From contig JAQTMQ010000002.1 in assembly GCA_028714235.1 (NCBI GenBank), forward strand, positions 8,154 through 72,153: a stretch of DNA of 64,000 nucleotides, read 5' to 3'. Position numbers and translations under genes: made by a program. The notes under the pieces were generated by a model. That model saw only the letters and a program-made list of their open reading frames with translations. It was not told the origin of the DNA and made no database searches. Shown in pieces: positions 10,073 to 24,172 of the stretch. Source of the stretch: Candidatus Iainarchaeum sp. GTDB lineage: Archaea > Micrarchaeota > Micrarchaeia > Burarchaeales > Fermentimicrarchaeaceae. The stretch's first letter is position 1; every line of letters begins with the position of its first letter.

Positions 10073-10600
10073 CTACCTCACGAGCCCGGTTATCGCGCAG
10101 TCGCCGAGGAACTGCGCGTCGCCGTAAAAGTATGCCGCGCCGGCCGTGAACCTCGTGCCGTTCGATGTCGCGTTGAAGCCGACGAAGAAAGGCAGCCGCG
10201 ACTCCGCCCCCATTTCGGAAACGCAGTCGGCAATCGGGCGCGCGTAAGAGGCCGCCCCGCCGAAGCATTGGTCGCCCTCGAAAGCGTAGTTCGTCACGTT
10301 CTTGCCCAGGGTTGAAAGCGTGAAGCTCAGCTGTATGCCGCAGTTCTGCTCGTTGAACCTCGCGTCGCCTTCCCCCATCCCCCTCAAGTCCTGCACCACG
10401 GCGGCCTTGCCGGTCGCGTTGAGCACCGCCTTGAACTGGTCGCGCCCAATCTCCTTCTCCCCGGCCTGCTGCGCGAGGAAAAGCGCGGCCGCAACCGCCA
10501 AGACCAGGACCGCGGCGATCAGGAGCGCGTTCGCGCGTATGGCGCCGCCTTGCGCCTGCTTCGGCACCACGGTTTCCGGGTTCGCCACGTCCGCAGCCAA
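10073..10600 (-). CDS. secreted/membrane-anchored small protein, paralogous at its C-terminus to the downstream 712-aa protein
   Basis: N-terminal TM anchor (ALLIAAVLVLAVAAALFLA) and NxT/S sequons. Its C-terminus ...FYGDAQFLGDCAITGLVR parallels ...GPASFHSDCLVARALAGS of the neighbouring gene. Confidence 0.5.
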   Translation of the reverse strand: MAADVANPETVVPKQAQGGAIRANALLIAAVLVLAVAAALFLAQQAGEKEIGRDQFKAVLNATGKAAVVQDLRGMGEGDARFNEQNCGIQLSFTLSTLGKNVTNYAFEGDQCFGGAASYARPIADCVSEMGAESRLPFFVGFNATSNGTRFTAGAAYFYGDAQFLGDCAITGLVR

Positions 10601-10610
10601 ATGGACACCT

Positions 10611-12749
10611 TCAGCTCCCGGCCAGCGCGCGCGCGACGAGGCAGTCAGAGTGGAACGACGCCGGCCCGCTCACGAATCCCCGCGTGGAATAATACACGCT
10701 GAAGCTCGAGGTCGTCTGGTTCGCGTAGCCGAGGACGAGCGCGGGCGCCCCGGCGACGTCCCTCGTGCACGCGTCCCCGGCAGCCGCGCCCGACGGCTCG
10801 GTGCACGCGCCTCCCGCCAAGGCGTAAACGCGGACCGTTTTACCGGAAGCGGAAAGGCTCGCCGAAACCGCGTTCGCGCACGACGACATCAGGGGAAGCG
10901 CGCCCGCGGGAGCGCCGTCCGACGCGACGATGACCGCGGTGCTGTTGGCGGCCGCCAGCCGGGACGAGAACAGGTCGAAGGTAGAGCGCGTCATCTCCTG
11001 CTGCACGACAGAGTTCGCGGTCGCGACCGCCACGCCCATGAGCACGAACAGGAACGCGAAAATGATTGCCCACAGCACCACGGAAAGGCGGTTGAGCCTT
11101 ATCACGCCCCGCGCCTTCAGGAGCGCGAAGACGGCGAGGCACGCGAAGTAGGCGAACGCTCCGGAAGCGATTATCGCGACGGTCGGGAGCGTGCGGGCGT
11201 ACGTCTCCCTCGCGTCGCCGCTCAGGGAGAGGGCGCCAGCGACGAGGTCTATCGCGAAGATGCTGACCCGCCTCGCGGCTCCCGCGACCCACGTCCCGGC
11301 CTGCAGCGTGCGCTGGCCCAGCTTCTCGCTCGCGACATCGTCCGCCTCCTGCCCGATGAACCGCAAGTCGTTGCTGAACTGGGCCACCGCGTCCCGGCTC
11401 ATCGGCAGCCCGGAGCCGACCACGCGGTCAATCTCCTCCTTTTCCTCGGAATACGCGTTCAGCCTGGCGATGAGCGAGCGGTCCTGCGGGTCAAGGTAAA
11501 GGCGCGCGCGGAAGAGCGCGAGCGCGGTGTCATTGTTCAGCCCCATGAATGCGCCGAAATCCGCGGTCAGGTTCCTCGTTTCCGCGTCAACCTTCTCCGA
11601 CAGGACGAACAGCTGGACCGCGCTCGCGTTTGCCGCCGAAAAGTTGCGGTCAATCCCGTACTGCGAAACGCGGAGCAGCAGCTCGGAGAGGGCGGCGAGG
11701 TCCGCCGAAAGCTCGTCGTCGGAAACCCGGGCGAGGATGATGCTTGCGGCCCTGGAGGCGTTGGAGGCGCGCCCCTCCACCTGCGAGTAAAGCGCCCTGA
11801 ACGACTCGTTTTCCTCGCTCATGCGCACGAAGTTGAACCTCGCGTTCATGCTGTTGTAAAGCGCCTGCGCGCGCGACAGCGCGCTCGCGTTGGACACTAT
11901 GCGGCCCGAAATCGCGTTCGAGTCCGTCATCGCCTCCGTGAGCTGCGAGAAGTTCGCGGGCACGTCGCGGCACCACTGCGAGTTCATCCTCGCGCTCGAC
12001 CTGTAGGCGCACCATTCAAGGCCGGCGGGCGCGAGTTGCGAGCCCGTAATCTCGAAGCACCCGAACAGGTGGTTCGTCTGCACCGCCTGCGCGCCGGCCT
12101 GGGCCGCGGTGAGGTTCCCGGTGAGGTAGGACGAGTACACGGCCGCGTCCACGGCGCCGCCCTTCATCGCGGTTGCGGCGGCAACCGCGTTTTTCAGGCC
12201 CTGCTGCTCCGCCCCGGTGTCCACCTCGAACTGGTGGATTGACGCGGCGAAGTCGCTGCCGAAGTAAGCCATCTTGTCGGCGCAGAACGGCACGTTCATG
12301 CACGATTCGCAGCGGGTGACGCCGCAGGTCGCGCCCGGCCGGTCCAATCCAATCGAGGTCTTGCACTCGAATTCGGCCGGGTACCTAGACGCGTTGAAGG
12401 CGCTGATGTGCCCAATCAGGTGGTCGAGCTCCGTCGCGTTGTGGTAATTCGCCGAGGCGTAATACTCGCGAATCGCGGAATTAATCCGGCTTGAGTCGTT
12501 CACGAACGCGTACCTGGTCTCGCCGCCCGACTCGCTTCTGGAAAGGAAGAAGGATTCGACGCCTTTCACTTTCACGAGCACGAACTGGCTTCCGCCTGCG
12601 GAAATCTGGGTTGCGCCCGCGTCGGACGAGAAATTCTCGCCCGGGTAAAGGTAGGGAGTTACAAAATCCTCCAAGGTTTCCGCGTAAAGCACGGGCGCGG
12701 AAAGGGCCACGACTAACAGTAATGCTAACAGCCTGGTTTCGGTCGCCAT
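10611..12749 (-). CDS. secreted Cys-rich, N-glycosylation-sequon-rich surface protein
   Basis: Signal peptide MATETRLLALLLVVALSAPVLYA, many N-x-S/T sites and internal TM segments near residue 520-600. TTTAAATA (minus strand, 12775-12782) lies ~29 nt upstream of the ATG, so the transcript is leaderless. Confidence 0.6.
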   Translation of the reverse strand: MATETRLLALLLVVALSAPVLYAETLEDFVTPYLYPGENFSSDAGATQISAGGSQFVLVKVKGVESFFLSRSESGGETRYAFVNDSSRINSAIREYYASANYHNATELDHLIGHISAFNASRYPAEFECKTSIGLDRPGATCGVTRCESCMNVPFCADKMAYFGSDFAASIHQFEVDTGAEQQGLKNAVAAATAMKGGAVDAAVYSSYLTGNLTAAQAGAQAVQTNHLFGCFEITGSQLAPAGLEWCAYRSSARMNSQWCRDVPANFSQLTEAMTDSNAISGRIVSNASALSRAQALYNSMNARFNFVRMSEENESFRALYSQVEGRASNASRAASIILARVSDDELSADLAALSELLLRVSQYGIDRNFSAANASAVQLFVLSEKVDAETRNLTADFGAFMGLNNDTALALFRARLYLDPQDRSLIARLNAYSEEKEEIDRVVGSGLPMSRDAVAQFSNDLRFIGQEADDVASEKLGQRTLQAGTWVAGAARRVSIFAIDLVAGALSLSGDARETYARTLPTVAIIASGAFAYFACLAVFALLKARGVIRLNRLSVVLWAIIFAFLFVLMGVAVATANSVVQQEMTRSTFDLFSSRLAAANSTAVIVASDGAPAGALPLMSSCANAVSASLSASGKTVRVYALAGGACTEPSGAAAGDACTRDVAGAPALVLGYANQTTSSFSVYYSTRGFVSGPASFHSDCLVARALAGS

Positions 12750-12920
12750 TCAGCTCATAATTGGTTGGGCTGCTATTTAAATCTTTACGGATTGGTGCGG
12801 TTTACCATAGGTAAGCTTTCAACCTTGGGTTGCCGTCGAATACACGATCAGGAAGAAAGCACCAATAAACGAGGGGGGGGTGTAGCTCAAAAATTCGTTT
12901 CCACTAACTATCGTTTAAAG

Positions 12921-12970
12921 CAGAAAAAAAGAGAAAAATAAAATGGGGAGGGGGTTTTTGCAAACCCCCG
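12921..12970 (-). terminator. hairpin plus oligo-T terminator downstream of the S-layer-like gene
   Basis: Minus-strand GGGGGUUU-GCAA-AAACCCCC (GNRA loop) at 12950-12969. It is followed on the minus strand by UUUUAUUUUUCUCUUUUUUUCUGC. Confidence 0.55.
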
Positions 12971-12996
12971 GAGTCTTGGCTTCCCGGTCCGGGACC

Positions 12997-15900
12997 TTAC
13001 TGGGCCCTTGCTGCGATGAGGGCCTGGATGAACTGGTCTCCAGCGGTCACCGTGTCCTGCGGCGTGTAGCCCGCGACGAGAATCCTGTTCGTGCCAATCG
13101 CCCTCACGACCACGGGTGTCGAGGTCAGGTCGATTGCCGAGCTGCGGATTATCTCGCTTGCCACCGTGTTCACCGTGTTTCCGCCGACCACAATCAGGGT
13201 TGCGGTCTGGTCCGCGTTGGTGTCGAGCACCACGAGCTTGTTGGTTGCGGTGTCGAGGTTGGTCGGGATTACGGTGTCGGTTACGCTTGGCGTCGCGGTG
13301 AGGGCGTCGAGTCCGGTTACCTGGCAGGTTGCAGAGCCGGCTCCTGCGGTGCAGGTTCCGACGTCTTCGGTAATCTGGGTGACCTTTATTGAGATTCCGC
13401 CTGCGAGGCCAACCGTGCTCTCGCCTTCTCCGAGCGGGCCGATCTGGACGGGTGCGTTGGGCGCAGTGCCTGAGGTCTTCATGTAGTATTGCGCTTCGCA
13501 AACCTTCTTCGCCACCTTCATTGCAGCGTTCGAGCTCGAAATCGAGGTGAACTTGCTGCCCCTGTCGGTGATGAAGCCTACCGTCTGCGGTCCGTCGTAC
13601 GGTGCCGGTCCCTTGCCTACGCCCGTGTAGTTCATCTTGTCAGGCGACGTGTCGAGCGCGTTGCCCGAAATCGGGTCAACGAACTGGTACGTCGTGCTGC
13701 TCTGGTTCTGCTGCTGGATGACGAACCTCACGTAGTCGTAGTCAGCCGGGCTGTTTCCAGCGTCTTCGCGGAAGGCGATGTACCTCTCCGCCGGGATTGT
13801 CGCGCCAGGCTCGATTGTGAGCTGGCAGGTTCCGACGCCTGTCGGGACGCCAACTTCACACCACTGCGGTTCTCCGCTGGTCACGAACGCTCCAGGGCCG
13901 AAGCCGAAGCTCTGCCTCGTGCCGTCGCCCGCGTCGTAGGTCACCGCGTCTTCCGCTCCTCCGTCGGGTGCTCCGCGGAAGTCGCATGCGGTTTCGCCTG
14001 GCTGGGTCCAGATGATCTCACCGGCATCGTTGTAGAGGCCGACTCTCATGTCTTCGCCAACCTGCGTGCTGTTGACCTCGAGGTGGAACGCGTTCCCGAA
14101 GGTGCCTCCGGTTGCGGTTATTGCGAGGACCTTCGTCATGTTCTTGCTGCCCGACACGGTCAACTCGACGTCGTCCGCTCCGATTCCGCTCGTTGACGGC
14201 TGGGTGTAAACAAGGGCCTGGTCCGACGCCTCACCGACGATGGTGAAGGTGGTCTGCGAGCTGAAGTCGCCGACGATGTTCAGCGTGTGGGTAGAGTTGA
14301 TGAGGTTCAACGGATACAGTTTGGTGCCGTAGGACGCGTTCAGGAGGTTGGAGCCGAGGTTCACGTAGAACGACGAAACCTGTCCGGTCAGTCCCTGCGC
14401 GCTCACCGTGAACGGCTGGTTCAAGCCCGAGGTTACGCGGAGCACGTTTGCGTCCGGCAGCCTGGTCTTGTACGTGCAGCTGCTGTCGCCTCCGTAGTTG
14501 TTCAGGGTGAAGGTCCTCTGGAGGATGGACATTCCGAGCGAGTCGTAGTCGCCGGGGTCCGCGCAGCTGAGTCCGTTGTACTGGAGCTGCCAGACAACAG
14601 GGCTGCAGATGATGTTCTGCGTGTCTCCCTCAACCATCTTCACGTTCGCGTTGTTGCCCTCGTCCTTCACGATGATTTCCCTGAGCGAGTCCACGTACTT
14701 GCTGTCCTTGGACGGGTCCTTGTTCTTCCAGTACAGGGAAACCATCCAGTCCTCGCACTCGTCGGAAATCTTCTCGCCATCCCTGAGCTCGAACTCCTTC
14801 GAGTAGATGGCCATTTCCGCCCATTTCGCGTACGCGTAGTAACCGGGGTTGTTCTTGTAGACGCGGATGCGAATCTTGCTTCCGTCGGGCGCGGTCCAGG
14901 TGTACGTCGCTCCATCCGCGATCTTGTCCTCCTTCAGGAGGTTGTTGTTCATGTCGTATATCTGGATGGACGCGTAGGTCTGGAACAGCTCTCCCGCGGG
15001 AACAGTGATATCGGCGAGCTTCACGTAGTAGGAGCCCGTTGAAAGGTTCTCTCCCACGTGCACTATGCCGTATGCCGATTCCTTCGCAAGGCGGATTGAG
15101 CCTCCTTCGCGGATACCTCCGGTGAGGGTGCCGTCGCAGTCTCCGGATGCCTCCGTGTCTGACGAGTCGGCGACGCAGGTGGATGGCGGGCTCATGTCGG
15201 AGATGATGTAGTCCTCCCCGAGGAACTTTATGAGGACGCGGTGCCTGTCGGTCCTGTCAGTGTCAGAGCACGTCCTGTTCGTTTCCTCGGTCTGCCTGGG
15301 GTTTCCGTATCCCGGGAAGATTGCGCCGTCGTTCGGGTTGCAGGTCGCCACTGGCACGCCGTACTGGTCGTGGGTGAACTTTATCTTGTACGCCATGTCC
15401 GGCTCGAAGCCGATGATCTTCTTGAGTGCGTCGTCGTACTTCGTTACCGCCCTGACCCACAGTGTCTGCTCTTCCGTGTATCCCACGTTTGCATAGGTGT
15501 CCGTAATGGAGCCGGTCTGCAGCGCCGGGAAGTCGCTTGCGGTGAACTTCTTCACCGCGTTCGAGAACTCAAGGGGCGACGGGTCGTTTGTCTGGTCGTA
15601 CTTGTCGTCTGACGAGGACTGGTTCCTGTTCTCCAGTTTCCTGTCAACCCAGTCGTTGATCAAGGTGTTGAATTGCACAGCACCCGATACGACTCCCGGC
15701 AAGGTTACGTTCAGCCAAACCTTTTCGTTGCTGATTGCGCAAGTCCCGGCTCCACCGGTTGCACCCGAAACGGTGCAGCCTACACCGCTCTTTCCGCTTA
15801 CTGTCGCGGTGACCGCCTGCGTTCTCCAGGCGAGGTTGCCGATCATTGCGGCAATGTTCGCTGCGACTACTCCGTCAGAAGCCGCCGCGGTTTGTCCGAC

Positions 15901-16044
15901 CACGACCTTGACCTGGGGCACTCCGCTTTCCGATATGATGGGGGTGTTGCTGTAGGTAATGGCTCCCGCCGTTGCGAAAGCCGCCCCTACGAGCGCGGTA
16001 CCCGCAGCCAATGCCGCGATCTTCTTCACGTTCAAACTCTTCAC
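12997..16044 (-). CDS. S-layer-like large cell-surface glycoprotein
   Basis: 1015 aa with signal peptide (KKIAALAAGTALVGAAFATAGA), Thr/Ser/Asn/Gly-rich and many sequons. GTG start at 16044 is preceded 5 nt upstream by GAGGTGGT, a strong SD. A long AT-rich upstream region lies at 16045-16320. Confidence 0.7.
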   Translation of the reverse strand: MKSLNVKKIAALAAGTALVGAAFATAGAITYSNTPIISESGVPQVKVVVGQTAAASDGVVAANIAAMIGNLAWRTQAVTATVSGKSGVGCTVSGATGGAGTCAISNEKVWLNVTLPGVVSGAVQFNTLINDWVDRKLENRNQSSSDDKYDQTNDPSPLEFSNAVKKFTASDFPALQTGSITDTYANVGYTEEQTLWVRAVTKYDDALKKIIGFEPDMAYKIKFTHDQYGVPVATCNPNDGAIFPGYGNPRQTEETNRTCSDTDRTDRHRVLIKFLGEDYIISDMSPPSTCVADSSDTEASGDCDGTLTGGIREGGSIRLAKESAYGIVHVGENLSTGSYYVKLADITVPAGELFQTYASIQIYDMNNNLLKEDKIADGATYTWTAPDGSKIRIRVYKNNPGYYAYAKWAEMAIYSKEFELRDGEKISDECEDWMVSLYWKNKDPSKDSKYVDSLREIIVKDEGNNANVKMVEGDTQNIICSPVVWQLQYNGLSCADPGDYDSLGMSILQRTFTLNNYGGDSSCTYKTRLPDANVLRVTSGLNQPFTVSAQGLTGQVSSFYVNLGSNLLNASYGTKLYPLNLINSTHTLNIVGDFSSQTTFTIVGEASDQALVYTQPSTSGIGADDVELTVSGSKNMTKVLAITATGGTFGNAFHLEVNSTQVGEDMRVGLYNDAGEIIWTQPGETACDFRGAPDGGAEDAVTYDAGDGTRQSFGFGPGAFVTSGEPQWCEVGVPTGVGTCQLTIEPGATIPAERYIAFREDAGNSPADYDYVRFVIQQQNQSSTTYQFVDPISGNALDTSPDKMNYTGVGKGPAPYDGPQTVGFITDRGSKFTSISSSNAAMKVAKKVCEAQYYMKTSGTAPNAPVQIGPLGEGESTVGLAGGISIKVTQITEDVGTCTAGAGSATCQVTGLDALTATPSVTDTVIPTNLDTATNKLVVLDTNADQTATLIVVGGNTVNTVASEIIRSSAIDLTSTPVVVRAIGTNRILVAGYTPQDTVTAGDQFIQALIAARAQ

Positions 16045-16403
16045 GATACCACCTCGGTATTCTGTGCCGTTTCTTTGTATGGGCGCCCGGCGAACTTCTC
16101 GCGTGAAGTGCCGGGTCGACAGATGCTCCCTGCCGACATAATACCAATATTAACAACGGCACACGTTTGCCCATACACAAACCCCACGTCATCCGACGGC
16201 GCACCCGGTAGGGCGCGCAGCCATCAATAGGGCTATTCCACAGGGTTTATTTTCTATGCCTTTTTAAATATTACTGAAACCTACTAACTCCAGTTAATAT
16301 TTGACAATCGGCGGAACGCCAATTGACGAACCTATTGTTCGTCTCGCCGCGGCACCCGGAGGTGCCGCTTTTGCCCGGCAAACCCTGCAGTAAGTGCTTT
16401 GCT

Positions 16404-16437
16404 CCTTCCAATGTTATATACCTTCCAATGTTATATA
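16404..16437 (+). promoter_or_regulatory. tandem 17-nt direct repeat (2 x CCTTCCAATGTTATATA) carrying two TATA-like boxes, positioned for the leaderless ATG at 16464
   Basis: Perfect duplication seen directly in the sequence. The second TTATATA (16431-16437) is centred ~27-30 nt upstream of ATG 16464. Confidence 0.5.
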
Positions 16438-16463
16438 TAGTGCGCTTCCCCAAACCGTTTGCG

Positions 16464-17660
16464 ATGGAGCCAGCCAATTTCCTGCTCGCGGTCGTCACGA
16501 GGCGCCCGGAGGAGCTTCAAAAGAACCTTCCCGCGTACCTGGAAGCCCTCGCCGGGAGGCCGGACTGGGAGGTCGCCGTCCTTGACGACGCCAAGTCGTC
16601 CGTGGGGAACGCGGCCTTCCTTTTGCGCGCCTTCAACGAGACCGGCATCCGCATGAGGCACCTTTCCCCCCGGCACGGGGTCGGGCTCGCCCGCATCGTC
16701 TCGTCCGCGCTTTCGCGCGACGTCACGCGGCTTTTCTCCGGGAGCTTCGGCTCGATCCGGAACACCGCCCTCGCCTTCGCAATCGCCGGGAGGCAAAACG
16801 CCGTGTTCGTGGACGACGACACCTTCCCCCTTTACGACTTCGCGGCGAGGTACGAGGCGCGTTTCTCCGAGGGCTGGAAGCTCGTTCCCGGCGGCTTCGA
16901 GGGCCACGTGCACGGCTCCGCGCACGGCCTCCTGTACTCGGTTTGCGAGGCCCTGAACGAGCTCGGGGCGGGAATCCTTCCGGAGAAGGACGCGGGCGCG
17001 CAAATCCTTTCCGCGGTCCGCGGCGTCCCGCCCAGGCAGTCCAGCCATTCCAGGCATTTCTTCAGCGGCGGCAACCTCGGCGTCTCGCTTTCCCTCGCGT
17101 CAAGGCTCCCGTTCCTGCCTTCCCCGTTCCGGATAGAGGACGCCATCTTCTCCATGGCCGCGTCCGACTACCTTTCAGGCGACGGGCGGGGCGTTTTCCG
17201 CGCGTACAACGACCGCCTCGCGCTGCTTGAGACCCCCCTCGTGCGCCACGCGCGCGCCCCGACGGCGGCGCCGTCGCTTCATTCCCGGCTCGTGAGGGGG
17301 CTGAAGGGCGCCGCAGTCGCGCGGCTCGTTTCGGAAATCGGCATCCAGTCGTTCGTCAAGGAGTCCTCAATCCCGGAGGATGGGCTTTCGGCCCGCCTGC
17401 GCGGCGCGGAGGAAGCCGCGTGGTCGGATTTCAACATGGAGAACCACAAGCAGAACATTTCCGGGTCGCTTGACCTCATCCCCGGTGAGGCGAAGGAGGA
17501 ACTCGCGCGCATCGCGAAGCTTGAGATGAAGGACGTGGTGCTGTCCTTGGGCGAGGTGAAGCAGGTCCTCGACGACCTGTCATTCTCCCTGAAGGCGTGG
17601 CCTTACGTCGCGGGCGCGCTTGAGGGCGGTAATGCGGGCAAGGAAGTGCTCGCGCTGTAG
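16464..17660 (+). CDS. hypothetical protein, possible GT-A-like glycosyltransferase
   Basis: 399 aa. A DxD-like VFVDDDTFP motif sits after a Rossmann-like N-half. It is divergent from the S-layer-like gene. Confidence 0.5.
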   Translation: MEPANFLLAVVTRRPEELQKNLPAYLEALAGRPDWEVAVLDDAKSSVGNAAFLLRAFNETGIRMRHLSPRHGVGLARIVSSALSRDVTRLFSGSFGSIRNTALAFAIAGRQNAVFVDDDTFPLYDFAARYEARFSEGWKLVPGGFEGHVHGSAHGLLYSVCEALNELGAGILPEKDAGAQILSAVRGVPPRQSSHSRHFFSGGNLGVSLSLASRLPFLPSPFRIEDAIFSMAASDYLSGDGRGVFRAYNDRLALLETPLVRHARAPTAAPSLHSRLVRGLKGAAVARLVSEIGIQSFVKESSIPEDGLSARLRGAEEAAWSDFNMENHKQNISGSLDLIPGEAKEELARIAKLEMKDVVLSLGEVKQVLDDLSFSLKAWPYVAGALEGGNAGKEVLAL

Positions 17661-17693: not shown

Positions 17694-17975
17694 TCAATAG
17701 GGATGGATTCCCTTGTAGAGCACGATTCCCACGACCGCGCCGGTGAGGATTCCGACGAGGATGCTCGTGAATATGTTTCCGGATACGGCGAGGCCGTAGT
17801 CGCCGACGAGGCCGACGGATTCGGGGAGAATGAGCATGCGGTTGTATACGAGGTAGGCGAAAGCCGCCCCGAAGAGTATCCCGATTACCGCGGAGACAAT
17901 CCCCCAGACCTGTTTCCCGGTTTCCGCCATCGCTTTCTGCTTTTTCCGTTCGGGCTTAAATATCCCGCCGCCCAA
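17694..17975 (-). CDS. small membrane protein (2-3 TM)
   Basis: 93 aa, hydrophobic (GIVSAVIGILFGAAFAYLV...ILVGILTGAVVGIVLY). Confidence 0.45.
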   Translation of the reverse strand: MGGGIFKPERKKQKAMAETGKQVWGIVSAVIGILFGAAFAYLVYNRMLILPESVGLVGDYGLAVSGNIFTSILVGILTGAVVGIVLYKGIHPY

Positions 17976-18000
17976 TCACTGCCCGGGGCCGAATCCGGTT

Positions 18001-18537
18001 ATGGACGAGCGATTCAAGCACGCCGCAGCCATCGTCGCCTCGCTGGTGCTGACCGCGGGAATCCTTTTTTATAACCCGGTCGAGAGGCTGGAGCCGCAGC
18101 TCGGGGAGTACGGCTACGCAGGCGTTTTCCTCGTGATGCTCGTTTCGAGCGCGACCGTCATCCTTCCGGTTCCCGGCCTTCTCTCCGCGTTCGCGATGGG
18201 CCACGCCTACAACTTCGCCCTCGTCGGAATCGCCGGGGGCATCGGGAGCGCGCTCGGCGAGTTGAGCGGCTACCTGCTCGGCTTCGGCGGGGCGGGGCTC
18301 GTGGAGGACCGCAGGATTGCGGCGTACGAGGAAACGAAGAAGTGGATGCGGTCGAACGGCTTCCTCACGATATTCGTGCTTTCGGCGCTGCCCAACCCGG
18401 TTTTCGACCTGGCGGGGATTGCGGCGGGCTCGCTCGGCTATCCTTGGTGGAAGTTCCTTGCCGCGTGCGCGCTCGGAAAAATCCTGAAGGTGACCGCGTT
18501 CGCCTATGCCGGGCTGCGGGTTTTCGGGTTTTTTTGA
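18001..18537 (+). CDS. DedA/VTT-domain membrane protein
   Basis: Pattern GYAGVFLVMLVSSATVILPVPG...ALPNPVFDLAGIAAG, typical of DedA/SNARE-associated proteins. Confidence 0.75.
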   Translation: MDERFKHAAAIVASLVLTAGILFYNPVERLEPQLGEYGYAGVFLVMLVSSATVILPVPGLLSAFAMGHAYNFALVGIAGGIGSALGELSGYLLGFGGAGLVEDRRIAAYEETKKWMRSNGFLTIFVLSALPNPVFDLAGIAAGSLGYPWWKFLAACALGKILKVTAFAYAGLRVFGFF

Positions 18538-18586
18538 GCGCCCGGAGCCACACGCATTAATTTAATAGGATTCACAATTACTTTTC

Positions 18587-21397
18587 GTGCCAGAAAACAA
18601 GATGTTCGTGTCAGGCATGCGAATGGCGCCGAGCGGTTCCGCCGGAGGCGCCGCCCCCGCGCCGGCCCCGGCAGCGCCGCAAGGCGGTGGCGGCTCGCTT
18701 TCCGAGCCGCAAGGCGGGGCGAGGTTCCGCTCGATGCGGCAGGAGCGCGTGCGGGCGATGCTCAAGTCCCTCCAGGAGGACACGCGCTTCATTGACGCGG
18801 CGATCGTGGTCCTCGGCTGCCTGTTCCTGCTGCTGAGGTTCTCGTTTTACCCGTGGTGGTTCATCCCGTTCATCCTCGCCGCGGTTGGCGTCGTGTCCTT
18901 CCGCTCGGCGGCCTTCGGCACGATTTTCGCGTGCGTCATCGCGCTTCCCGCGGTCTCCTACCAGTCCCCGCTTTTCGCCTGGCTTTACCTGCTCGTCGTT
19001 TCGCTCGTGCTCTTCAAGGCGTTCGAGACCTGGAAGCTGATATCGCTCCTGTTCGCGCTCATCTGCTGCCCGTTCACCGCCTTCGGGTTCCTGATAATCC
19101 CGCTTCACGTCGTGTCCGGCCTGCTGCTGGGCTCCAAGCGCGGGGCCTTCGTTACCGGCGTGACCGTGTTCTCGGTTCTCCTGCTTTCCGTCATGTGGGG
19201 CGAGCCGAACAGCGGCTTCATGAACTACAACGCCGAGATTTACAAGGCCATCAACACCATGCCCCTCTCCGTGCCCGCGCCGCGCGCCTTCGACTTCATT
19301 TCCGGGAGCGCGTTCGCGCAGGCCGGGGCGAACTTCATCGACTGGGGCGAGGTGAAGAACCTCAACGACCGCATCACCGAGTGCGTGAACATCTCGTACT
19401 ACCTCGTAGTCCGCGACTCGGCGCTCATCCAGATAATCCTGTGGACGATTTCGGTTTTCGCGATAGGCTTCGTTCCCGGCCACGTGAGGTGGAAGAACAA
19501 GGAGACGGTCGCGAGCCTCGCCTCAATCCTCATCCTCGTCGCGATAGCGCTTTCGTCGCTCCTGTCCGGGGTCCGGTTCAGCCCGCTCGCCCCGTTTTCG
19601 GTCGCCCTGTCAATCGCCTTCGTCTGGGTGCTTGAAACGAACGGCATCCAGCTTTCCCGCGAGGTCACGGTGACCAAGATAGACAAGATGCAGAAGTTCT
19701 CCAAGTTCGGCCTGCAGGACCTCAGCCTCTCCGACGGCGCGGAGTCGCTCGGCGACGTCGGCGGCTACGCGAACACGAAAAAGGAGCTTTACGATTCCAT
19801 CGTGATGCCGCTCCAGCGAAAGGAGCTGCAGACCGCCTACGGGCTCAAGCCGCCGAAAGGCCTCCTGCTCTTCGGCCCGCCCGGCACGGGCAAGACCATG
19901 CTCATGCGCGCGCTCGCGAAGGAGATGGACATCGGCTTCTATTACGTGAAATGCTCGGACCTGCTCTCGCAGTGGTACGGGGAAACCGAGCACAACATCG
20001 CCGAGCTGTTCAAGATTGCGCGCGCGAACGCGCCCTGCGTCCTGTTCTTCGACGAGGTGGACTCGGTCGGGAAGCGCCGCGACAAGTACACCGCCGACGA
20101 CGTCGCGCCGCGCCTGCTTTCCGTCATGCTCGCCGAAATGGACGGCTTCAAGTCCAACAAGCCGGTCATCATCGTCGGCGCGACCAACATCCCGCAGGAG
20201 CTCGACCCCGCGCTCCTCCGCCCCGGCCGCTTCGACAAGATAATATACATGCCGCTGCCCGACCTCGCGAGCAGGAAGCAGATTTTCATGGTCCACACCC
20301 GCGGGCTCCCGCTCTCAGAGGACGTGGACTTCGCGGTCCTCGCGAAGAAGACGGAGCGCTTCTCCGGTGCGGACATCGCGAACATCGTGCACGAGGCGGC
20401 GACGCGCGCGTCCAAGCTCGGCATCGCCGCGGACAAGGTCGTCCCCATCACCATGGCCGACTTCCTCGCGGTGATTGAGATGCTGAAGCCGACCGTCTCG
20501 ATTTCCCAGCTTGAGGAGTACGACCGCTTCGGAGTGGATTACGCGCGCAGGACGGAGCCGGAGAAAAAGGAGAAGGACGAGAGGGCGGTGAGCTGGAAGG
20601 ACGTAATCGGGATGGACGACGTGCGCAAGGCGTTCATAGAGGCAATCGAGCTCCCCCTGCTCCACGAGGGGCTGCTCAAGGAGTACGGCGTGGAGCCAAT
20701 CAAGGGCATACTCCTGTTCGGGCCGCCGGGATGCGGGAAAACAATGATAGTGAAGGCGGCGTCGAACGAGCTCGACGTGCTCTTCGTCTCCCTGAGCGGC
20801 GCGGACCTGCTCAAGATGGGCTACGACGGCGCGGTCCGGGAGATAAAGAGCACGTTCGACCGCGCGAAGGAGAACGCGCCGGCCGTGGTTTTCATGGACG
20901 AGGTCGACGCCATGGCGCCGGCGCGCGGCGCGTCGTCGGGCCCGCTCAGCGAAAAGCTGGTCGCGCAGCTCCTGAACGAGATGGACGGCGTGAAGGAGCT
21001 GAGGAACGTCCTGTTCGTCGGGGCCACCAACCGCCCGGAAATGCTGGACCCCGCGCTACTCCGGCCCGGCCGCCTGGACAAGATAATGTTCGTCCACCCG
21101 CCGCTTGCCGAGGACCGCGCCCGCATCTTCGCGCTGAACCTGAAGTCGGTCCCCAAGTCCGGGGACATAGACTTCATGAAGCTCGCGAAGCTGACGGACG
21201 GCTTCACGGGCGCGGACATCGCCTCCGTCTGCCAGGAGTCCAAGATGCGCGCGGTCCGCAAGAAGATTGCGGGCAAGAAGGCGGAAGTCCAGACGTCCGA
21301 CATCCTCGAAGTCCTCGCCGAGCGCAAGCCGAGCGTCACCCCGCAGATGCTTTCAGGCTACATGGCGTTCATGGAGGAGTACGGCGAGAGGAGGTAA
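18587..21397 (+). CDS. membrane-embedded tandem AAA+ ATPase (Cdc48/VCP-like D1-D2 fused to an ~400-aa polytopic N-terminal domain)
   Basis: At least 8 hydrophobic helices lie in residues ~70-380. D1 has GPPGTGKTM, VLFFDEVD and ATNIPQELDPALLRPGRFD. D2 has GPPGCGKTM, VVFMDEVD and ATNRPEMLDPALLRPGRLD. Confidence 0.8.
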   Translation: MPENKMFVSGMRMAPSGSAGGAAPAPAPAAPQGGGGSLSEPQGGARFRSMRQERVRAMLKSLQEDTRFIDAAIVVLGCLFLLLRFSFYPWWFIPFILAAVGVVSFRSAAFGTIFACVIALPAVSYQSPLFAWLYLLVVSLVLFKAFETWKLISLLFALICCPFTAFGFLIIPLHVVSGLLLGSKRGAFVTGVTVFSVLLLSVMWGEPNSGFMNYNAEIYKAINTMPLSVPAPRAFDFISGSAFAQAGANFIDWGEVKNLNDRITECVNISYYLVVRDSALIQIILWTISVFAIGFVPGHVRWKNKETVASLASILILVAIALSSLLSGVRFSPLAPFSVALSIAFVWVLETNGIQLSREVTVTKIDKMQKFSKFGLQDLSLSDGAESLGDVGGYANTKKELYDSIVMPLQRKELQTAYGLKPPKGLLLFGPPGTGKTMLMRALAKEMDIGFYYVKCSDLLSQWYGETEHNIAELFKIARANAPCVLFFDEVDSVGKRRDKYTADDVAPRLLSVMLAEMDGFKSNKPVIIVGATNIPQELDPALLRPGRFDKIIYMPLPDLASRKQIFMVHTRGLPLSEDVDFAVLAKKTERFSGADIANIVHEAATRASKLGIAADKVVPITMADFLAVIEMLKPTVSISQLEEYDRFGVDYARRTEPEKKEKDERAVSWKDVIGMDDVRKAFIEAIELPLLHEGLLKEYGVEPIKGILLFGPPGCGKTMIVKAASNELDVLFVSLSGADLLKMGYDGAVREIKSTFDRAKENAPAVVFMDEVDAMAPARGASSGPLSEKLVAQLLNEMDGVKELRNVLFVGATNRPEMLDPALLRPGRLDKIMFVHPPLAEDRARIFALNLKSVPKSGDIDFMKLAKLTDGFTGADIASVCQESKMRAVRKKIAGKKAEVQTSDILEVLAERKPSVTPQMLSGYMAFMEEYGERR

Positions 21398-21517: not shown

Positions 21518-21820
21518 TTATTGCGCGAGCAGCGCGATGAGCGTCTTCCTCACGTTCTCGTTCGCCCCCTTCACCGCGCGCACCCTGTCCGCGAGCTGCC
21601 TTTTCCCCATGAAGCCGAGCCAGGGCGCGAAGTGGCCGCCGTTCGCGTGGTAGAGCACGCTGTCCAGCGGCACGGTTTTCAGGAGGGCGGCGAATTCGTT
21701 CACGTTTTTCGCCTTCCCCACCTCCTTGCCGTCGTGCGTGCGGAACACGAACTCCTTTCCCGGCGGGCAGTTCGGTTCCGGCGGCCTGCCCTCAAATTTT
21801 TTCGTTGCCATCGCTTTCAC
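21518..21820 (-). CDS. hypothetical protein, probably co-transcribed with GH57
   Basis: 100-aa ORF starting 10 nt after the GH57 stop. No family recognised. Confidence 0.45.
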   Translation of the reverse strand: MKAMATKKFEGRPPEPNCPPGKEFVFRTHDGKEVGKAKNVNEFAALLKTVPLDSVLYHANGGHFAPWLGFMGKRQLADRVRAVKGANENVRKTLIALLAQ

Positions 21821-21829
21821 CTCTCCGTC

Positions 21830-23023
21830 TCACGCTTCCTCGACTTCCTTCCTGAAGTCCTGGAGGATGTTCATGTAGTTGATGAAGCCCTCGTAGGGCG
21901 ACTGGAACGGCGAGAAATACTTGTGCACGTCGCCGTCCGCCCACGATTTTGTGCAAAGGTAATACAGGTGGTCGCTGTTCTGGAGGAGCCTCCACACGTG
22001 CAGAATCTCCGGGTCGCGCGTCTCGCGCACCTTCAGCTCGAGGCCCTGCAAGGCGTGGAAGCACTCCCTCTGCATGCTGTTCCCCAGCCACGCGCTCACG
22101 TCGCGCTCCATGTCCGCCCAGGAAATCGGGTTCGGCACGTCAATCTCCCCCATCACCGGGTTGTCCTGCACGACTTCGGTGGGCGTCATGAAGCCGAGGT
22201 GCTGGTATTTGAGCACCTCGCGCGGAAGCGCGGCAAGGAAGCTGAATATGCCGGTCTCCTCCCACTGGTGCTCGCCGAAAGTCTCGTAGTCCATGAAGAG
22301 GTTGATGCACTGGCCCGGCGCGCCGGCAAGCCACTTCGCGTATTTTTCGGCGGTGAGCGGCCACTCCGGCCACCAGCGCGCCGAAAACCTGTACGAAACG
22401 TCGTCTGAAAGCTTGTAGTTGCGCAGGAGCGCCTTTATGCGCGCGCATCCCTTGACGCCGTACAGGTAGTCCGGGGAGCGCCACCCGAGCACGCTCTCGT
22501 GCCCCTCGCCCACGATTCCGTCGAAGCCCAGGTCTTCCGCGAGGCGCGCCATGTCGTTTGAGAAGAGCGCCTCCGTGTTCCTGAACACCTTCCCGGACGC
22601 CTTGAAGAGCGAGTGCAGCTCCTGCGAGTGCATGCGGACCTGCTCCACGAACTCGGTCTTGTCCTCAAAGAGGGACGAAAGCGAGTGGTAGTATGTCTCG
22701 TTCAGGAATTCCACGCACCCGGTTTCCGCGAGGGCGTGGAACGAGTCGATGACTTCCGGCCTGAACCTTTTCGCCTGCTCGAGGAACGAGCCGGTGAGCG
22801 AATACGAAATCCTGAACCTGCCCTCGTTCTCCCCGATGAGCTTCAGGAGAAGGGAGTTCGCGGGCAGGTAGCACTTGTCCGTGACCTTCCCGAAAATCGC
22901 CTTGTTCGTCGCGTCGTCGAAATACCGCTCGTAAAGGCTGTCCGGGATGCTGTCCGCGAAAAGCGAGAAGCGCTTCAGCCGCACGGGCTGGTGGACCTGG
23001 AAGTAAAAGCAAACCGCGGTCAT
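21830..23023 (-). CDS. glycoside hydrolase family 57 (alpha-glucan-active enzyme)
   Basis: N-terminal FYFQVHQPVRL (GH57 HQP motif), ~400 aa with Trp/Tyr-rich core. Confidence 0.7.
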   Translation of the reverse strand: MTAVCFYFQVHQPVRLKRFSLFADSIPDSLYERYFDDATNKAIFGKVTDKCYLPANSLLLKLIGENEGRFRISYSLTGSFLEQAKRFRPEVIDSFHALAETGCVEFLNETYYHSLSSLFEDKTEFVEQVRMHSQELHSLFKASGKVFRNTEALFSNDMARLAEDLGFDGIVGEGHESVLGWRSPDYLYGVKGCARIKALLRNYKLSDDVSYRFSARWWPEWPLTAEKYAKWLAGAPGQCINLFMDYETFGEHQWEETGIFSFLAALPREVLKYQHLGFMTPTEVVQDNPVMGEIDVPNPISWADMERDVSAWLGNSMQRECFHALQGLELKVRETRDPEILHVWRLLQNSDHLYYLCTKSWADGDVHKYFSPFQSPYEGFINYMNILQDFRKEVEEA

Positions 23024-23029
23024 AGGGAA

Positions 23030-24172
23030 TCACTTTCTTATCTCGTTGTACACCCCTATCGTCTGGTCCGCGACCTTGTCCCACGTCATGCCCTTCGCGT
23101 CCTCGTACTCGTTGTGCGCGAGCGTGTCCCGCAGGACCTTGTATCGGAGGAGCGCGACGATTCTTTCGGCGAGGCCGTTCACGTCCCAGAAGTCCACCAC
23201 GAGCCGGTGGGGCGAAACCTCGGAGGCGCCGCTTGTCTTCGAAACGATTACGGGCGTGCCGCTCGCCATCGCCTCGAGCGCCGTTATCCCGAACGGCTCG
23301 CTCACCGAGCCCATCACGTACACGTCGCTCTTCGCGTAAACCGACTCCTTCTGCTCGTCTGGAAGGTACCCGATGAACGTCACGTGCGGGCTTATGCCGA
23401 GCGAAACAGAGAGGCTTATGAGGTAGCCCATCATGTCCCCGGTTCCCGCGACGACGAACCGCACGTGCCTCTCCTTCTCCAGCACGCGCTTCGCCGCGTA
23501 AAGGAACTGGGCGGGCGCCTTCTGCTCGGCGAGCCGCCCGAGGAACAGGACGATTTTTTCCTTGCCGTGCTTCACGTCCCAGCTCTGCTTGAATTCGTCG
23601 GTCCTGACCGCGTTGTAGATGACGCGGATTTTTCCCTCGTCAACCCCGAACTTCTCCTTGAGCTGGCCCTTCATGTAGTTCGAGACGGTGATAACGCGGT
23701 CCGCGTTCACCATCGCCTTCTGCTCTATGTCGCGGATGTAGCCGTTCGGGAACATGCCCGACCTGTCGTACTCCGTGGAATGGAACGTCGAGACCATCGG
23801 GAGCCCGAGCGAATACTTCCCCTTCATCGCGGCGAAGGCGGTCATCCAGTCGTGGTGGTGGACGACGCAGTAATCGTTCCCGCGGCCCCGCTTGGCGAGC
23901 TCCTCCGCGCACGCGTTGTTGAACGCGTGGACGCTCGCGAAAAAATCGAGGCCGTACGCGTTCTTCGTCACGTACGCGCCGTACCGCGCGTAGCCCACCG
24001 GGATGATTTTCACCCCGTCGCCTTTGGGCGCCACGTTGGACTCGGTCCGCGGCATGTAGAAGTCCACTTCCACGCCCCTCCTCGCGAGCGCGTGGGTGAG
24101 CTCGTAGCAGTGGACGGCAAGGCCTCCGGTCTTGAAAGGAGGATACTCCCAGCCTACCATCGCGACTTTCAT
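23030..24172 (-). CDS. GT4-family glycosyltransferase (glycogen-synthase-like)
   Basis: MKVAMVGWEYPPFKTGGLAVHCYEL... and a C-terminal EPFGITALEAMASGTPVI motif. Confidence 0.8.
   Translation of the reverse strand: MKVAMVGWEYPPFKTGGLAVHCYELTHALARRGVEVDFYMPRTESNVAPKGDGVKIIPVGYARYGAYVTKNAYGLDFFASVHAFNNACAEELAKRGRGNDYCVVHHHDWMTAFAAMKGKYSLGLPMVSTFHSTEYDRSGMFPNGYIRDIEQKAMVNADRVITVSNYMKGQLKEKFGVDEGKIRVIYNAVRTDEFKQSWDVKHGKEKIVLFLGRLAEQKAPAQFLYAAKRVLEKERHVRFVVAGTGDMMGYLISLSVSLGISPHVTFIGYLPDEQKESVYAKSDVYVMGSVSEPFGITALEAMASGTPVIVSKTSGASEVSPHRLVVDFWDVNGLAERIVALLRYKVLRDTLAHNEYEDAKGMTWDKVADQTIGVYNEIRK

Follow-up and report, generated by a model that had tools for sequence, protein, structure and literature searches.

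What is an archaeal protein in which a polytopic membrane domain runs directly into two AAA modules, and what might it do? The gene lies in a 64,000-nucleotide stretch of DNA, the whole of which we call the window (Table 1). Membrane-anchored AAA+ motors such as FtsH, Msp1, Bcs1 and Pex1/6 play a central part in translocation and in the quality control of membrane proteins, and all characterised motors of this kind known to us are held by one or two anchoring helices or by a separate anchor protein. In contrast, the protein encoded here (the window protein) appears to have a confidently folded domain of 8-10 passes, without known relatives, fused straight to the motor.

Table 1. Features of the AAA gene and its neighbours, in positions of the window; amino acid (aa) numbers refer to the window protein
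Feature	Position	Strand	Remarks
P175	10073..10600	-	one N-terminal TM helix and a small ectodomain; third gene of the envelope triad
P712	10611..12749	-	signal peptide, ectodomain of about 490 aa, 2-3 TM helices
S-layer protein (S_layer_C)	12997..16044	-	signal peptide, 1015 aa
VTT/DedA-family membrane protein	18001..18537	+	upstream neighbour, 49 nt gap; recurs in the conserved cluster
AAA gene, complete CDS	18587..21397	+	936 aa, then a TAA stop; joins a membrane domain to two AAA modules
N-terminal tail, aa 1-65	18587..18781	+	predicted cytoplasmic; low-complexity A/P/G stretch, then basic helix RSMRQERVRAMLKSLQE
Polytopic membrane domain, aa 66-351	18782..19639	+	8-10 predicted passes; sequence-orphan family
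Long sequence-variable loop, aa 205-278	19199..19420	+	short helices
Linker, with helix at aa 359-381	19640..19750	+	consensus SRExxVxxxEKxxKFGKFGxQDLS; leads from last TM helix to D1
AAA module 1 (D1, membrane-proximal)	19751..20566	+	conserved core partner of the membrane domain
D1 motifs	Walker A 19874-19897; pore loop SQWYGETE 19967-19990; Walker B 20045-20062; RPGR 20219-20230	+	
AAA module 2 (D2, distal)	20567..21394	+	non-canonical loop; no HbYX
D2 motifs	Walker A 20720-20743; KMGYDGAV loop 20813-20836; Walker B 20888-20908; RPGR 21062-21073	+	
Conserved C-terminal YGERR	21380-21394	+	end of D2
Downstream conserved block	21518..24172	-	three genes
DUF5752-like, 100 aa	21518-21820	-	
GH57	21830-23023	-	
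GT4/starch-synthase-like glycosyltransferase	23030-24172	-	

The sequence-only reading had taken the locus to encode a single protein of uncommon architecture, and both parts of that claim stood. The product matches a deposited protein, 'AAA family ATPase [Candidatus ainarchaeum sp.]', at 100% identity from end to end. We retrieved 114 full-length homologs (860-1000 aa, 45-67% identity, with a query coverage of 94-100% in most of the matches listed), and the same fusion was found at 49 independent loci in species-representative genomes, including the complete chromosome CP058998. The membrane domain is rare, occurring in 72 clusters among 1.84 billion representatives, and an AAA module followed it in every match whose architecture was checked. 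All of these homologs and loci are labelled Micrarchaeota, and one homolog, ARM1_0067, belongs to the cultivated Micrarchaeon ARM-1. The fusion is conserved across a whole phylum of genome-reduced symbionts. Distant relatives were found in a few Thermoplasmatota (hhalign probability 98.7%). These proteins have in addition a signal peptide and an ectodomain with many N-glycosylation sequons, which links the family with the cell surface. The earlier argument from the absence of FtsH in Archaea does not explain this restriction to Micrarchaeota and a few Thermoplasmatota. Our literature search found no paper that describes the family or connects this AAA protein with Micrarchaeota.

Both AAA modules are complete, as had been claimed. 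Pfam finds two AAA modules (PF00004, E 1e-82) and two AAA_lid_3 domains (PF17862). D1 contains Walker A (GPPGTGKT, 430-437), Walker B (FFDEVD, 487-492), Sensor-1 (GATN, 531-534) and arginine fingers (RPGR, 545-548); the corresponding motifs of D2 are GPPGCGKT (712-719), FMDEVD (769-774), GATN (812-815) and RPGR (826-829). These ATPase motifs are intact in both rings across 113 homologs. The pore loops differ, as nearly all of the 113 homologs keep [W/Y][Y/F]GE[S/T]E in D1, whereas the D2 loop is variable or lost. Five homologs carry inteins, each inside the D1 pore-loop motif, and insertion at such a place typically marks a site that is critical for function. In one lineage an ortholog of 619 aa consists of the membrane domain and one AAA module, which shows that D2 can be dispensed with. 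The AAA module of this ortholog is 59% identical to D1 and that of the Thermoplasmatota relatives 50%, compared with 36-40% for the same modules against D2. As these modules group with D1, we take the membrane domain and D1 to be the functional core. The two-ring and single-ring orthologs, with a canonical pore loop in D1 only, offer a natural contrast for dissecting ring function. There are no other AAA genes within the window.

The window protein shares with Cdc48/p97/VAT a tandem pair of classic-clade AAA modules, complete with Walker A/B, sensor-1 and double arginine fingers, and these proteins are its best PDB and NCBIfam sequence matches. Nevertheless, it lies outside the CDC48 family. 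Its scores fall below the cutoffs of both TIGR01243 (CDC48; 506.8 bits, cutoff 802.65) and TIGR01241 (FtsH; 441.5 bits, cutoff 600). Where Cdc48/p97/VAT have a double-psi-barrel/beta-clam N-domain, it has the polytopic membrane domain, predicted to be an all-helical bundle, and Pfam gives no match in aa 1-385, to CDC48_N and CDC48_2 or to anything else. Module 1 scores 213 bits against the D2 of CDC48A and 183 against its D1; both modules match Cdc48 D2 better than D1, and in a small NJ tree module 1 does not pair with D1. The window protein differs from Cdc48/p97/VAT also in having its canonical pore loop in D1 and not in D2, and in the dispensability of D2 in one lineage. Thus, the description 'Cdc48-type' holds for the tandem modules with their lids and for the nearest relatives, but not for the family cutoff, the N-domain or the C-terminal HbYX motif.

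Other membrane-bound AAA proteins share parts of this design. FtsH, Yme1 and AFG3L2 have an N-terminal membrane anchor placed closely before the AAA ring, with pore loops that face the membrane in what is presumed to be an extraction geometry. However, FtsH spans the membrane with two TM helices and has a single AAA ring that is followed by a C-terminal M41 zinc protease, whereas the window protein has 8-10 predicted TM helices, two rings and no protease. Msp1/ATAD1 and Bcs1 are membrane-tethered AAA hexamers that move proteins out of or across the membrane, but each of their subunits has just one TM helix, they form a single ring, and both are eukaryotic organellar proteins. Archaeal LonB is an AAA+ protein with inserted TM helices and a C-terminal Lon (S16) domain; the window protein has no Lon_C. 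The MBA proteins of Sulfolobales have a single ring and few TM segments, and they are not known to be related to the membrane domain of the window protein. The MBA group, whose name stands for membrane-bound AAA, was defined in Sulfolobus (Serek-Heuberger et al., 2009, as cited in PMC3493965) and is the only named archaeal membrane-bound classic AAA group that our literature search found.

The window protein was also rightly said to lack a protease domain, as Pfam finds neither Peptidase_M41 nor Lon in it. An adjoining protease partner, for which a check had been suggested, did not appear, and neither the window nor the conserved neighbourhood holds a cytoplasmic one. Near some loci, outside the window, there is a gene with a Lon_C match whose product combines a signal peptide with a Lon domain (about aa 80-170) but lacks an AAA module. 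This product is probably not LonB but a secreted, extracytoplasmic S16 peptidase.

The membrane domain was expected to have at least eight TM helices, which is borne out with a count of either 8 or 10, and the hydrophobic region covers aa 65-351 in the window protein and in the family mean alike. An AlphaFold2 model gives an all-helical bundle (pLDDT 93.7, pTM 0.89). Searches against Pfam (E up to 5, 20 members), PDB profiles and NCBIfam, and a Foldseek search of the model against the PDB (best E 0.9), found no relative. Conserved motifs include FYPWW (87-91), PAVSYQSP (121-128), W132, W149, CPF (161-163), GSK (182-184), W204, D277 and W286. By our definition, members of the family have FYPxW, PA[VI]xYQSP, APF, GSK, W204 and D277 in the membrane part, then KFGKFGxQDLS in the linker, and after it WYGES as the pore loop of D1. 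All of these motifs are found in the window protein and are conserved in our alignments (A1-A3). The long loop at aa 205-278 is probably on the outer side of the membrane, because K+R make up 5.7% of its residues compared with 17-21% in the cytoplasmic tails.

The gene neighbourhood suggests where such a protein might act. In 28 of 38 informative loci, the next 3 kb downstream of the AAA gene hold an S-layer homolog on its strand, usually as the directly adjoining gene, and P712 follows the S-layer gene in 25 of these 28. P712 and P175 are membrane-anchored secreted proteins. In the window a local inversion has left the S-layer gene divergent and 2.5 kb upstream of the AAA gene. The gene for the 619-aa single-ring ortholog holds the same position upstream of an S-layer gene. 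We believe that this conserved linkage to the S-layer cluster points to an envelope-specific role rather than to general FtsH-like quality control. Against such a link, the adjacency is missing in 10 of the 38 loci. Additionally, as the conserved block also holds unrelated genes such as GH57, GT4 and eRF1, the synteny may in part reflect an order of genes that was simply inherited, and the S-layer gene probably has its own promoter, given the 140-560 bp that separate it from the gene before it. Mirror-tree and partial correlations of the membrane domain with the S-layer protein and P712 were high (r ~0.9, partial r 0.55-0.8), but controls fell within the same ranges, and so there was no specific signal of co-evolution. 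How the S-layer is anchored in Micrarchaeota has been stated to be unknown (PMC8975820).

Based on these results, we propose a model that we hold tentatively, though we think it the likeliest of those considered here: the window protein is a putative membrane-integral AAA+ unfoldase or dislocase whose clients are envelope-associated membrane proteins. By analogy with all classic AAA proteins, the subunits would form a hexamer. A ring of 8-10-pass domains would sit in the cytoplasmic membrane, directly over the D1 ring, to which it would be joined by the short conserved linker helix. D1 would grip a substrate polypeptide at the membrane side and draw it toward the cytoplasm, a direction that we infer because the ring with the conserved aromatic pore loop is the one predicted to face the membrane. 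The outcome would be the extraction or remodelling of membrane-embedded proteins. Thus, the earlier idea of a membrane extraction or dislocation ATPase remains a reasonable reading, given the conserved aromatic loop of the membrane-proximal ring. As D2 has no canonical pore loop, we propose that it is a hydrolysis-competent but auxiliary or stabilising ring. The clients are probably envelope-associated, because the linkage to the S-layer gene and to two membrane-anchored envelope proteins is persistent; they could be, for example, anchors of the S-layer, or precursors that have become stuck in the membrane. That the membrane domain is, by its model, a confidently folded unit with its own invariant residues also counts for an unfoldase. 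Against a dislocase, no substrate, adaptor or protease partner was identified, and the protein does not have the HbYX tail with which substrate could be passed on to the 20S proteasome.

The dislocase model also leaves the membrane domain partly unexplained. Judged by its invariant polar and aromatic residues, this domain of 290 aa is far more than an anchor, and these residues suggest a specific binding or catalytic role. It is conceivable, if unlikely, that the membrane domain and the AAA modules are the ATP-driven core of an unrecognised archaeal envelope machine, which would couple hydrolysis to the S-layer or to its putative anchors P712 and P175 through a new class of polytopic domain shared with some Thermoplasmatota, where it is fused to a glycosylated ectodomain. 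The task of such a machine could be the insertion, anchoring or turnover of the lattice, or its local opening, for instance at a site of host contact. For the question of how the envelope of DPANN archaea is built, anchored and remodelled, the AAA gene, with its genomic tie to the S-layer locus, is a concrete and testable candidate.

A narrower role in the envelope seems to us quite unlikely. The protein might be an ATPase dedicated to S-layer export or assembly, which keeps the highly abundant S-layer precursor or its anchors competent for secretion, drives them outward, or couples ATP to their insertion into the lattice. The gene order of AAA, S-layer, P712 and P175 on one strand speaks for such a role, as do the probably extracellular variable loop, the several invariant residues that our provisional topology model places at the outer ends of helices, and the ectodomain fused to the Thermoplasmatota relatives. 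The membrane domain also evolves as fast as the S-layer protein (mean pairwise distances of 0.58 and 0.57), while the AAA part has a mean of 0.36. Another point in favour is that Archaea, to our knowledge, have no SecA. In Clostridioides and Bacillus, the part that the protein would play here belongs to the accessory ATPase SecA2, which is encoded beside S-layer genes; SecA2 is a soluble protein of the SF2/DEAD-like class that works with SecYEG. The resemblance to SecA2 of Firmicutes, a dedicated ATPase gene next to an S-layer gene, is an analogy in genomic logic only, since SecA2 and the AAA window protein belong to wholly different ATPase classes. However, outward threading would run from D2 to D1, and D2 is the ring that has no canonical pore loop and is absent from one lineage. 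The signal peptide of the S-layer protein is of the ordinary Sec type, and the 10 loci without adjacency count here too. In a Rosetta-stone test, profiles of the S-layer protein, P712, P175, P445, P100 and P93 showed no homology to the Thermoplasmatota ectodomains.

The putative binding site could also belong to a protein that does not thread polypeptides at all, although we consider this improbable. A transporter-like or lipid-handling membrane domain might be energised or regulated by the AAA rings, or the protein might remodel membranes (vesicles, host contact). The invariant polar and aromatic residues are typical of a binding site, and a gene of the lipid-handling DedA/VTT type adjoins. 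A likeness of the membrane domain to the fold of ECF S-components (ThiT, RibU, BioY, FolT, PanT and CbiM), at 6-16% sequence identity, is a weak lead. It was recovered neither by Foldseek nor by a sub-model of the six N-terminal helices, and none of the 20 members matched an S-component family in Pfam at E up to 5. EcfT and EcfA genes were absent from the neighbourhoods that we read, and no Pfam or PDB family is related to the domain by sequence. In addition, the strict conservation of the D1 pore loop favours polypeptide threading.

That the protein is a membrane-tethered paralog of Cdc48/VAT that feeds the 20S proteasome, in generic proteostasis at the membrane, is in our view very improbable. 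Both AAA modules are nearest to Cdc48/p97/VAT, and in Archaea Cdc48 is among the ATPases that serve the proteasome (PMC3493965). However, docking to the 20S particle needs the HbYX motif, as defined for the archaeal proteasomal ATPases of the PAN, Cdc48 and AMA network (PMC3493965), and among the 114 C-termini only 2 show this motif, whereas the tail that is conserved reads YGER[KR]. The score under the CDC48 cutoff and the replaced N-domain argue against this role as well, and the conserved neighbourhood holds no proteasome genes.

Finally, the sequence-only reading had allowed that a separate upstream membrane-protein gene might have been joined to the AAA gene by a frameshift or a sequencing error, but this is virtually excluded, as the continuous architecture recurs in over 110 proteins encoded in independent assemblies, in the 49 species-representative genomes and in the distant Thermoplasmatota homologs, and we found no point in favour of an artefact. 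The sole uncertainty is the start codon, which falls somewhere within aa 1-50. The reading frame begins with GTG, and most homologs start near M50; the longer N-terminal tail is common to the closest relatives. Translation may in truth begin at the ATG at 18734 (M50). The Thermoplasmatota homologs have a basic cytoplasmic stretch at the same point as the N-terminal tail of the window protein.

The product of the membrane AAA gene (936 aa) carries a polytopic region followed by two complete AAA modules, D1 (membrane-proximal) and D2 (distal). Coordinates, Pfam, motifs and hydropathy agree on this architecture, as the sequence-only reading had described it. Pfam detected two AAA modules of the classic type (PF00004, E 1e-82) along with two AAA_lid_3 domains, matched no domain in the first ~385 residues, and found no protease domain anywhere in the protein, which bears out the earlier claim that it has none. 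The run of hydrophobic segments spans aa 65-351 without a break, in the averaged family profile as well as in the window protein. Placement of the start codon is uncertain: the equivalent of M50 (ATG at 18734) lies near the start of most family members; a longer A/P/G-rich N-tail is common to the window protein and its closest relatives in the alignment.

Features of the membrane AAA gene and its neighbours in the window
Feature	Position	Strand	Remarks
Membrane AAA ORF, 936 aa	18587..21397	+	GTG start, TAA stop; read from sequence
Walker A	aa 430-437 (D1), 712-719 (D2)		Read from sequence
Walker B	aa 487-492 (D1), 769-774 (D2)		Read from sequence
Sensor-1 GATN	D1 and D2		Read from sequence
Double Arg-finger motif RPGR	D1 and D2		Read from sequence
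S-layer gene	within 10073-16044	-	S_layer_C, 1015 aa, signal peptide; divergent from membrane AAA gene
P712	within 10073-16044, after S-layer gene	-	Signal peptide, large ectodomain, 2-3 TM helices
P175	within 10073-16044, after P712	-	One TM helix and ectodomain
445-aa ORF	16323-17660	+	No Pfam match, no TM segment
Small two-TM protein	in segment ~17694-21397		Upstream of membrane AAA gene
VTT/DedA-family membrane protein	18001-18537	+	49 nt upstream of membrane AAA gene
DUF5752-like 100-aa gene, GH57, GT4/starch-synthase-like glycosyltransferase	21518-24172	-	Downstream of membrane AAA gene

The membrane domain is modelled by AlphaFold2 (66-sequence alignment) as an all-helical bundle with a pLDDT of 93.7 and a pTM of 0.89, so it is a folded domain in its own right and not just a generic anchor. 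Alignments showed invariant or near-invariant positions throughout it: F85/Y88/P89, P121-A122-x-x-Y125-Q126-S-P, W132, W149, P162-F163, G182-S183, W204, D277 and W286. It matched no Pfam family at E values up to 5 in any of 20 members, and no PDB chain in a profile search. Against 1.84 billion representative proteins, its profile retrieved only 72 clusters. Most are ~900-aa proteins that share the architecture of the window protein; the others are truncated fragments or longer forms with inteins. An AAA module followed the domain in every divergent match whose architecture was scanned. As both the basic N-tail and the AAA modules have to lie in the cytoplasm, the number of passes should be even. 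Hydropathy and the positive-inside count favour 7+3 passes with aa 205-278 outside (K+R in short loops under this model, 5.15 inside versus 0.65 outside), whereas aa 128-163 form one unbroken 36-residue helix in the AlphaFold model, which would fit 8 passes instead.

Outside Micrarchaeota, three representative clusters, all of Thermoplasmatota (987-1295 aa), also match the membrane-domain profile (E ~1e-5, whole library), with an hhalign probability of 98.7%, and have the motifs PFYPxW, A[AV]SYQS and FGW in common with the Micrarchaeota domains. The Thermoplasmatota homologs of this form (P0181, P0185, P0186 and P0224, the last at locus L058, 3323-6391) carry extra N-terminal parts: a signal peptide, a ~320-aa ectodomain with abundant N-glycosylation sequons, and one TM helix, after which a strongly basic stretch leads directly into the membrane domain; one or two AAA modules come after it. 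This arrangement is separate evidence that the N-end of the membrane domain is cytoplasmic. Beyond the three clusters, only one relative of the ectodomain-bearing form was found, and its gene comes right after one with a VWA domain; at L058 the gap between these two genes is 5 nt. The ectodomain has no sequence homology to the S-layer protein, P712 or P175. Some Thermoplasmatota are hosts of Micrarchaeota, and gene transfer between the two is conceivable.

The Cdc48-type assignment of the sequence-only reading was only partly borne out. The D2 ring of Cdc48/p97/VAT is the best PDB match for each module separately, and D1 scores 213 bits to D2 of Arabidopsis CDC48A versus 183 bits to its D1; between themselves, the two modules share 41% identity. 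The whole protein scores below the NCBIfam cutoff for CDC48 (506.8 versus 802.65 bits), as it does for PAN (459.6 versus 500) and FtsH (441.5 versus 600). In 113 homologs, Walker B and the Arg fingers are kept in both rings. The D1 pore loop reads [W/Y][Y/F]GE[S/T]E in almost all of them, and its counterpart in D2 varies around K-x-G-Y-x-G-A and has been lost in some lineages. Five homologs (P0009, P0076, P0113, P0116 and P0109) carry inteins of 177-502 aa at one shared site in the D1 pore-loop motif, between WYGE and [ST]E (window equivalent 19982-19984, after E466); all begin with Ser and end in HN.

A 619-aa Anstonellaceae variant (P0195/P0167; locus L059, 8001-9860) couples the membrane domain to just one AAA module. 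Its gene lies directly upstream of an S-layer gene, the same position as that of the two-ring genes, and it is therefore an ortholog without D2. Its module and that of the Thermoplasmatota relatives group with D1. Thus, the conserved functional core is the membrane domain, linker helix and D1, and D1 is the predicted substrate-engaging ring, facing the membrane.

Comparison of 58 related loci showed a repeated block: GT4, GH57, P100 (the DUF5752-like gene), VTT, membrane AAA, S-layer, P712, P175 and eRF1. Where at least 3.5 kb of sequence was available downstream of the membrane AAA gene, an S-layer homolog lay within 3 kb on the same strand at 28 of 38 loci, and P712 then followed in 25 of these 28. 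Lineages without the GT4/GH57 part still keep this AAA, S-layer, P712 core, and so does the locus of the single-ring ortholog. The adjacency is missing at the other 10 of the 38 loci, and the conserved block also includes unrelated genes. With usually 140-560 bp of intergenic sequence ahead of it, the S-layer gene probably has its own promoter.

In the window, the segment with the small TM protein, VTT and AAA genes (~17694-21397) is inverted relative to the nearest relatives (L010). As a result, the AAA gene is divergent from the S-layer gene rather than directly upstream and co-directional. Across Micrarchaeota, the S-layer, P712 and P175 genes stay together as a conserved three-gene unit. 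Pfam matched no family for P712 or P175, which are candidate S-layer anchors; S-layer anchoring in Micrarchaeota has been stated to be unknown (PMC8975820). The 445-aa ORF is also kept at L010, L042 and L048, where it sits between the AAA gene and the S-layer gene, the VTT/DedA gene recurs in the conserved block, and the DUF5752-like, GH57 and GT4 genes form a conserved alpha-glucan-type trio beside the envelope genes. DedA proteins have been connected with the handling of polyprenyl-phosphate or lipids, a role that would fit an envelope or glycosylation cluster. The adjacent protease partner considered earlier did not appear: no cytoplasmic protease gene adjoins the membrane AAA gene at any locus compared. 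A gene for a ~595-aa Lon (S16, Lon_C) protein lies ~7 kb downstream in several lineages (L059, 16010-17797; also L005, L035, L039 and L053) and is absent from the window. Its product has a signal peptide, with the Lon domain near the N-terminus; the signal peptide and absence of an AAA module rule out LonB, and the product is probably a peptidase that belongs to the envelope cluster and acts outside the cytoplasm.

We tentatively propose that a membrane-integral unfoldase with envelope-associated clients best explains the anatomy and gene linkage, while giving this model somewhat less than an even chance. The unfoldase part is based on an AAA motor with pore-loop-bearing D1 at the membrane, a large membrane domain, and no protease or proteasome-docking tail. 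The client part is based on lasting linkage to S-layer and membrane-anchored companions, and on the ectodomain-bearing relatives. A classic AAA motor would form a ring, and the short conserved linker would set D1 against the membrane. A polypeptide, possibly an envelope-associated protein, would then be gripped on the membrane side and drawn toward the cytoplasm, as by FtsH and Msp1. Hexamer formation, threading direction, topology and clients are all inferred in this model.

An S-layer export or assembly motor, which could be likened to SecA2 in its genomic logic, is unlikely, as the D2 pore loop is degenerate and D2 is dispensable. A non-threading transporter or membrane-remodelling role is less likely still, given the strictly conserved D1 pore loop. 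Slightly less probable again is a membrane-tethered proteasomal Cdc48: archaeal Cdc48, PAN and AMA dock to the 20S proteasome through HbYX (PMC3493965), but the C-terminus here is a conserved YGER[KR], with HbYX in only 2 of 114 homologs.

Compared with known systems, the unfoldase that we propose would be closest to FtsH and Msp1-type membrane dislocases in mode of action, and both its ATPase modules are closest to Cdc48 D2. It is outside all these families; in each membership test run, at least one defining feature was lacking. In the literature we found a single named archaeal group of 'membrane-bound AAA' proteins, MBA of Sulfolobus, as cited in PMC3493965. Full-text searches on AAA, Cdc48 or S-layer in Micrarchaeota or DPANN, which took in papers on the Micrarchaeota S-layer and on cultivated strains, turned up no account of the membrane AAA protein. 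What is new here is the polytopic domain and the genomic association, on a membrane-anchored AAA+ protein with a predicted unfoldase function.

The homolog search returned 1624 matches. Among the 120 listed, 114 are full-length homologs (860-1000 aa, 45-67% identity, with a query coverage of 94-100% for most), and those with a name carry, in nearly all cases, the label Micrarchaeota, Micrarchaeia, Anstonellales or Burarchaeum. A motif scan of one genome per GTDB species gave 49 loci, all in Micrarchaeota, including the complete chromosome of Ca. Fermentimicrarchaeum limneticum. With the same architecture in these 114 homologs and 49 loci, the fusion by frameshift that had been raised earlier has a negligible chance of being correct. 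The scan used a single peptide pattern that misses the window protein itself, so the true distribution is wider than 49 loci. The cultivated Micrarchaeon ARM-1 has a homolog, ARM1_0067 (BCS90610.1). The window protein is identical over its full length to a protein deposited simply as 'AAA family ATPase [Candidatus ainarchaeum sp.]' (P0001), which comes from a metagenome-assembled genome; considering the Micrarchaeota labels of the homologs and loci, the taxonomic label on its source genome may be unreliable.
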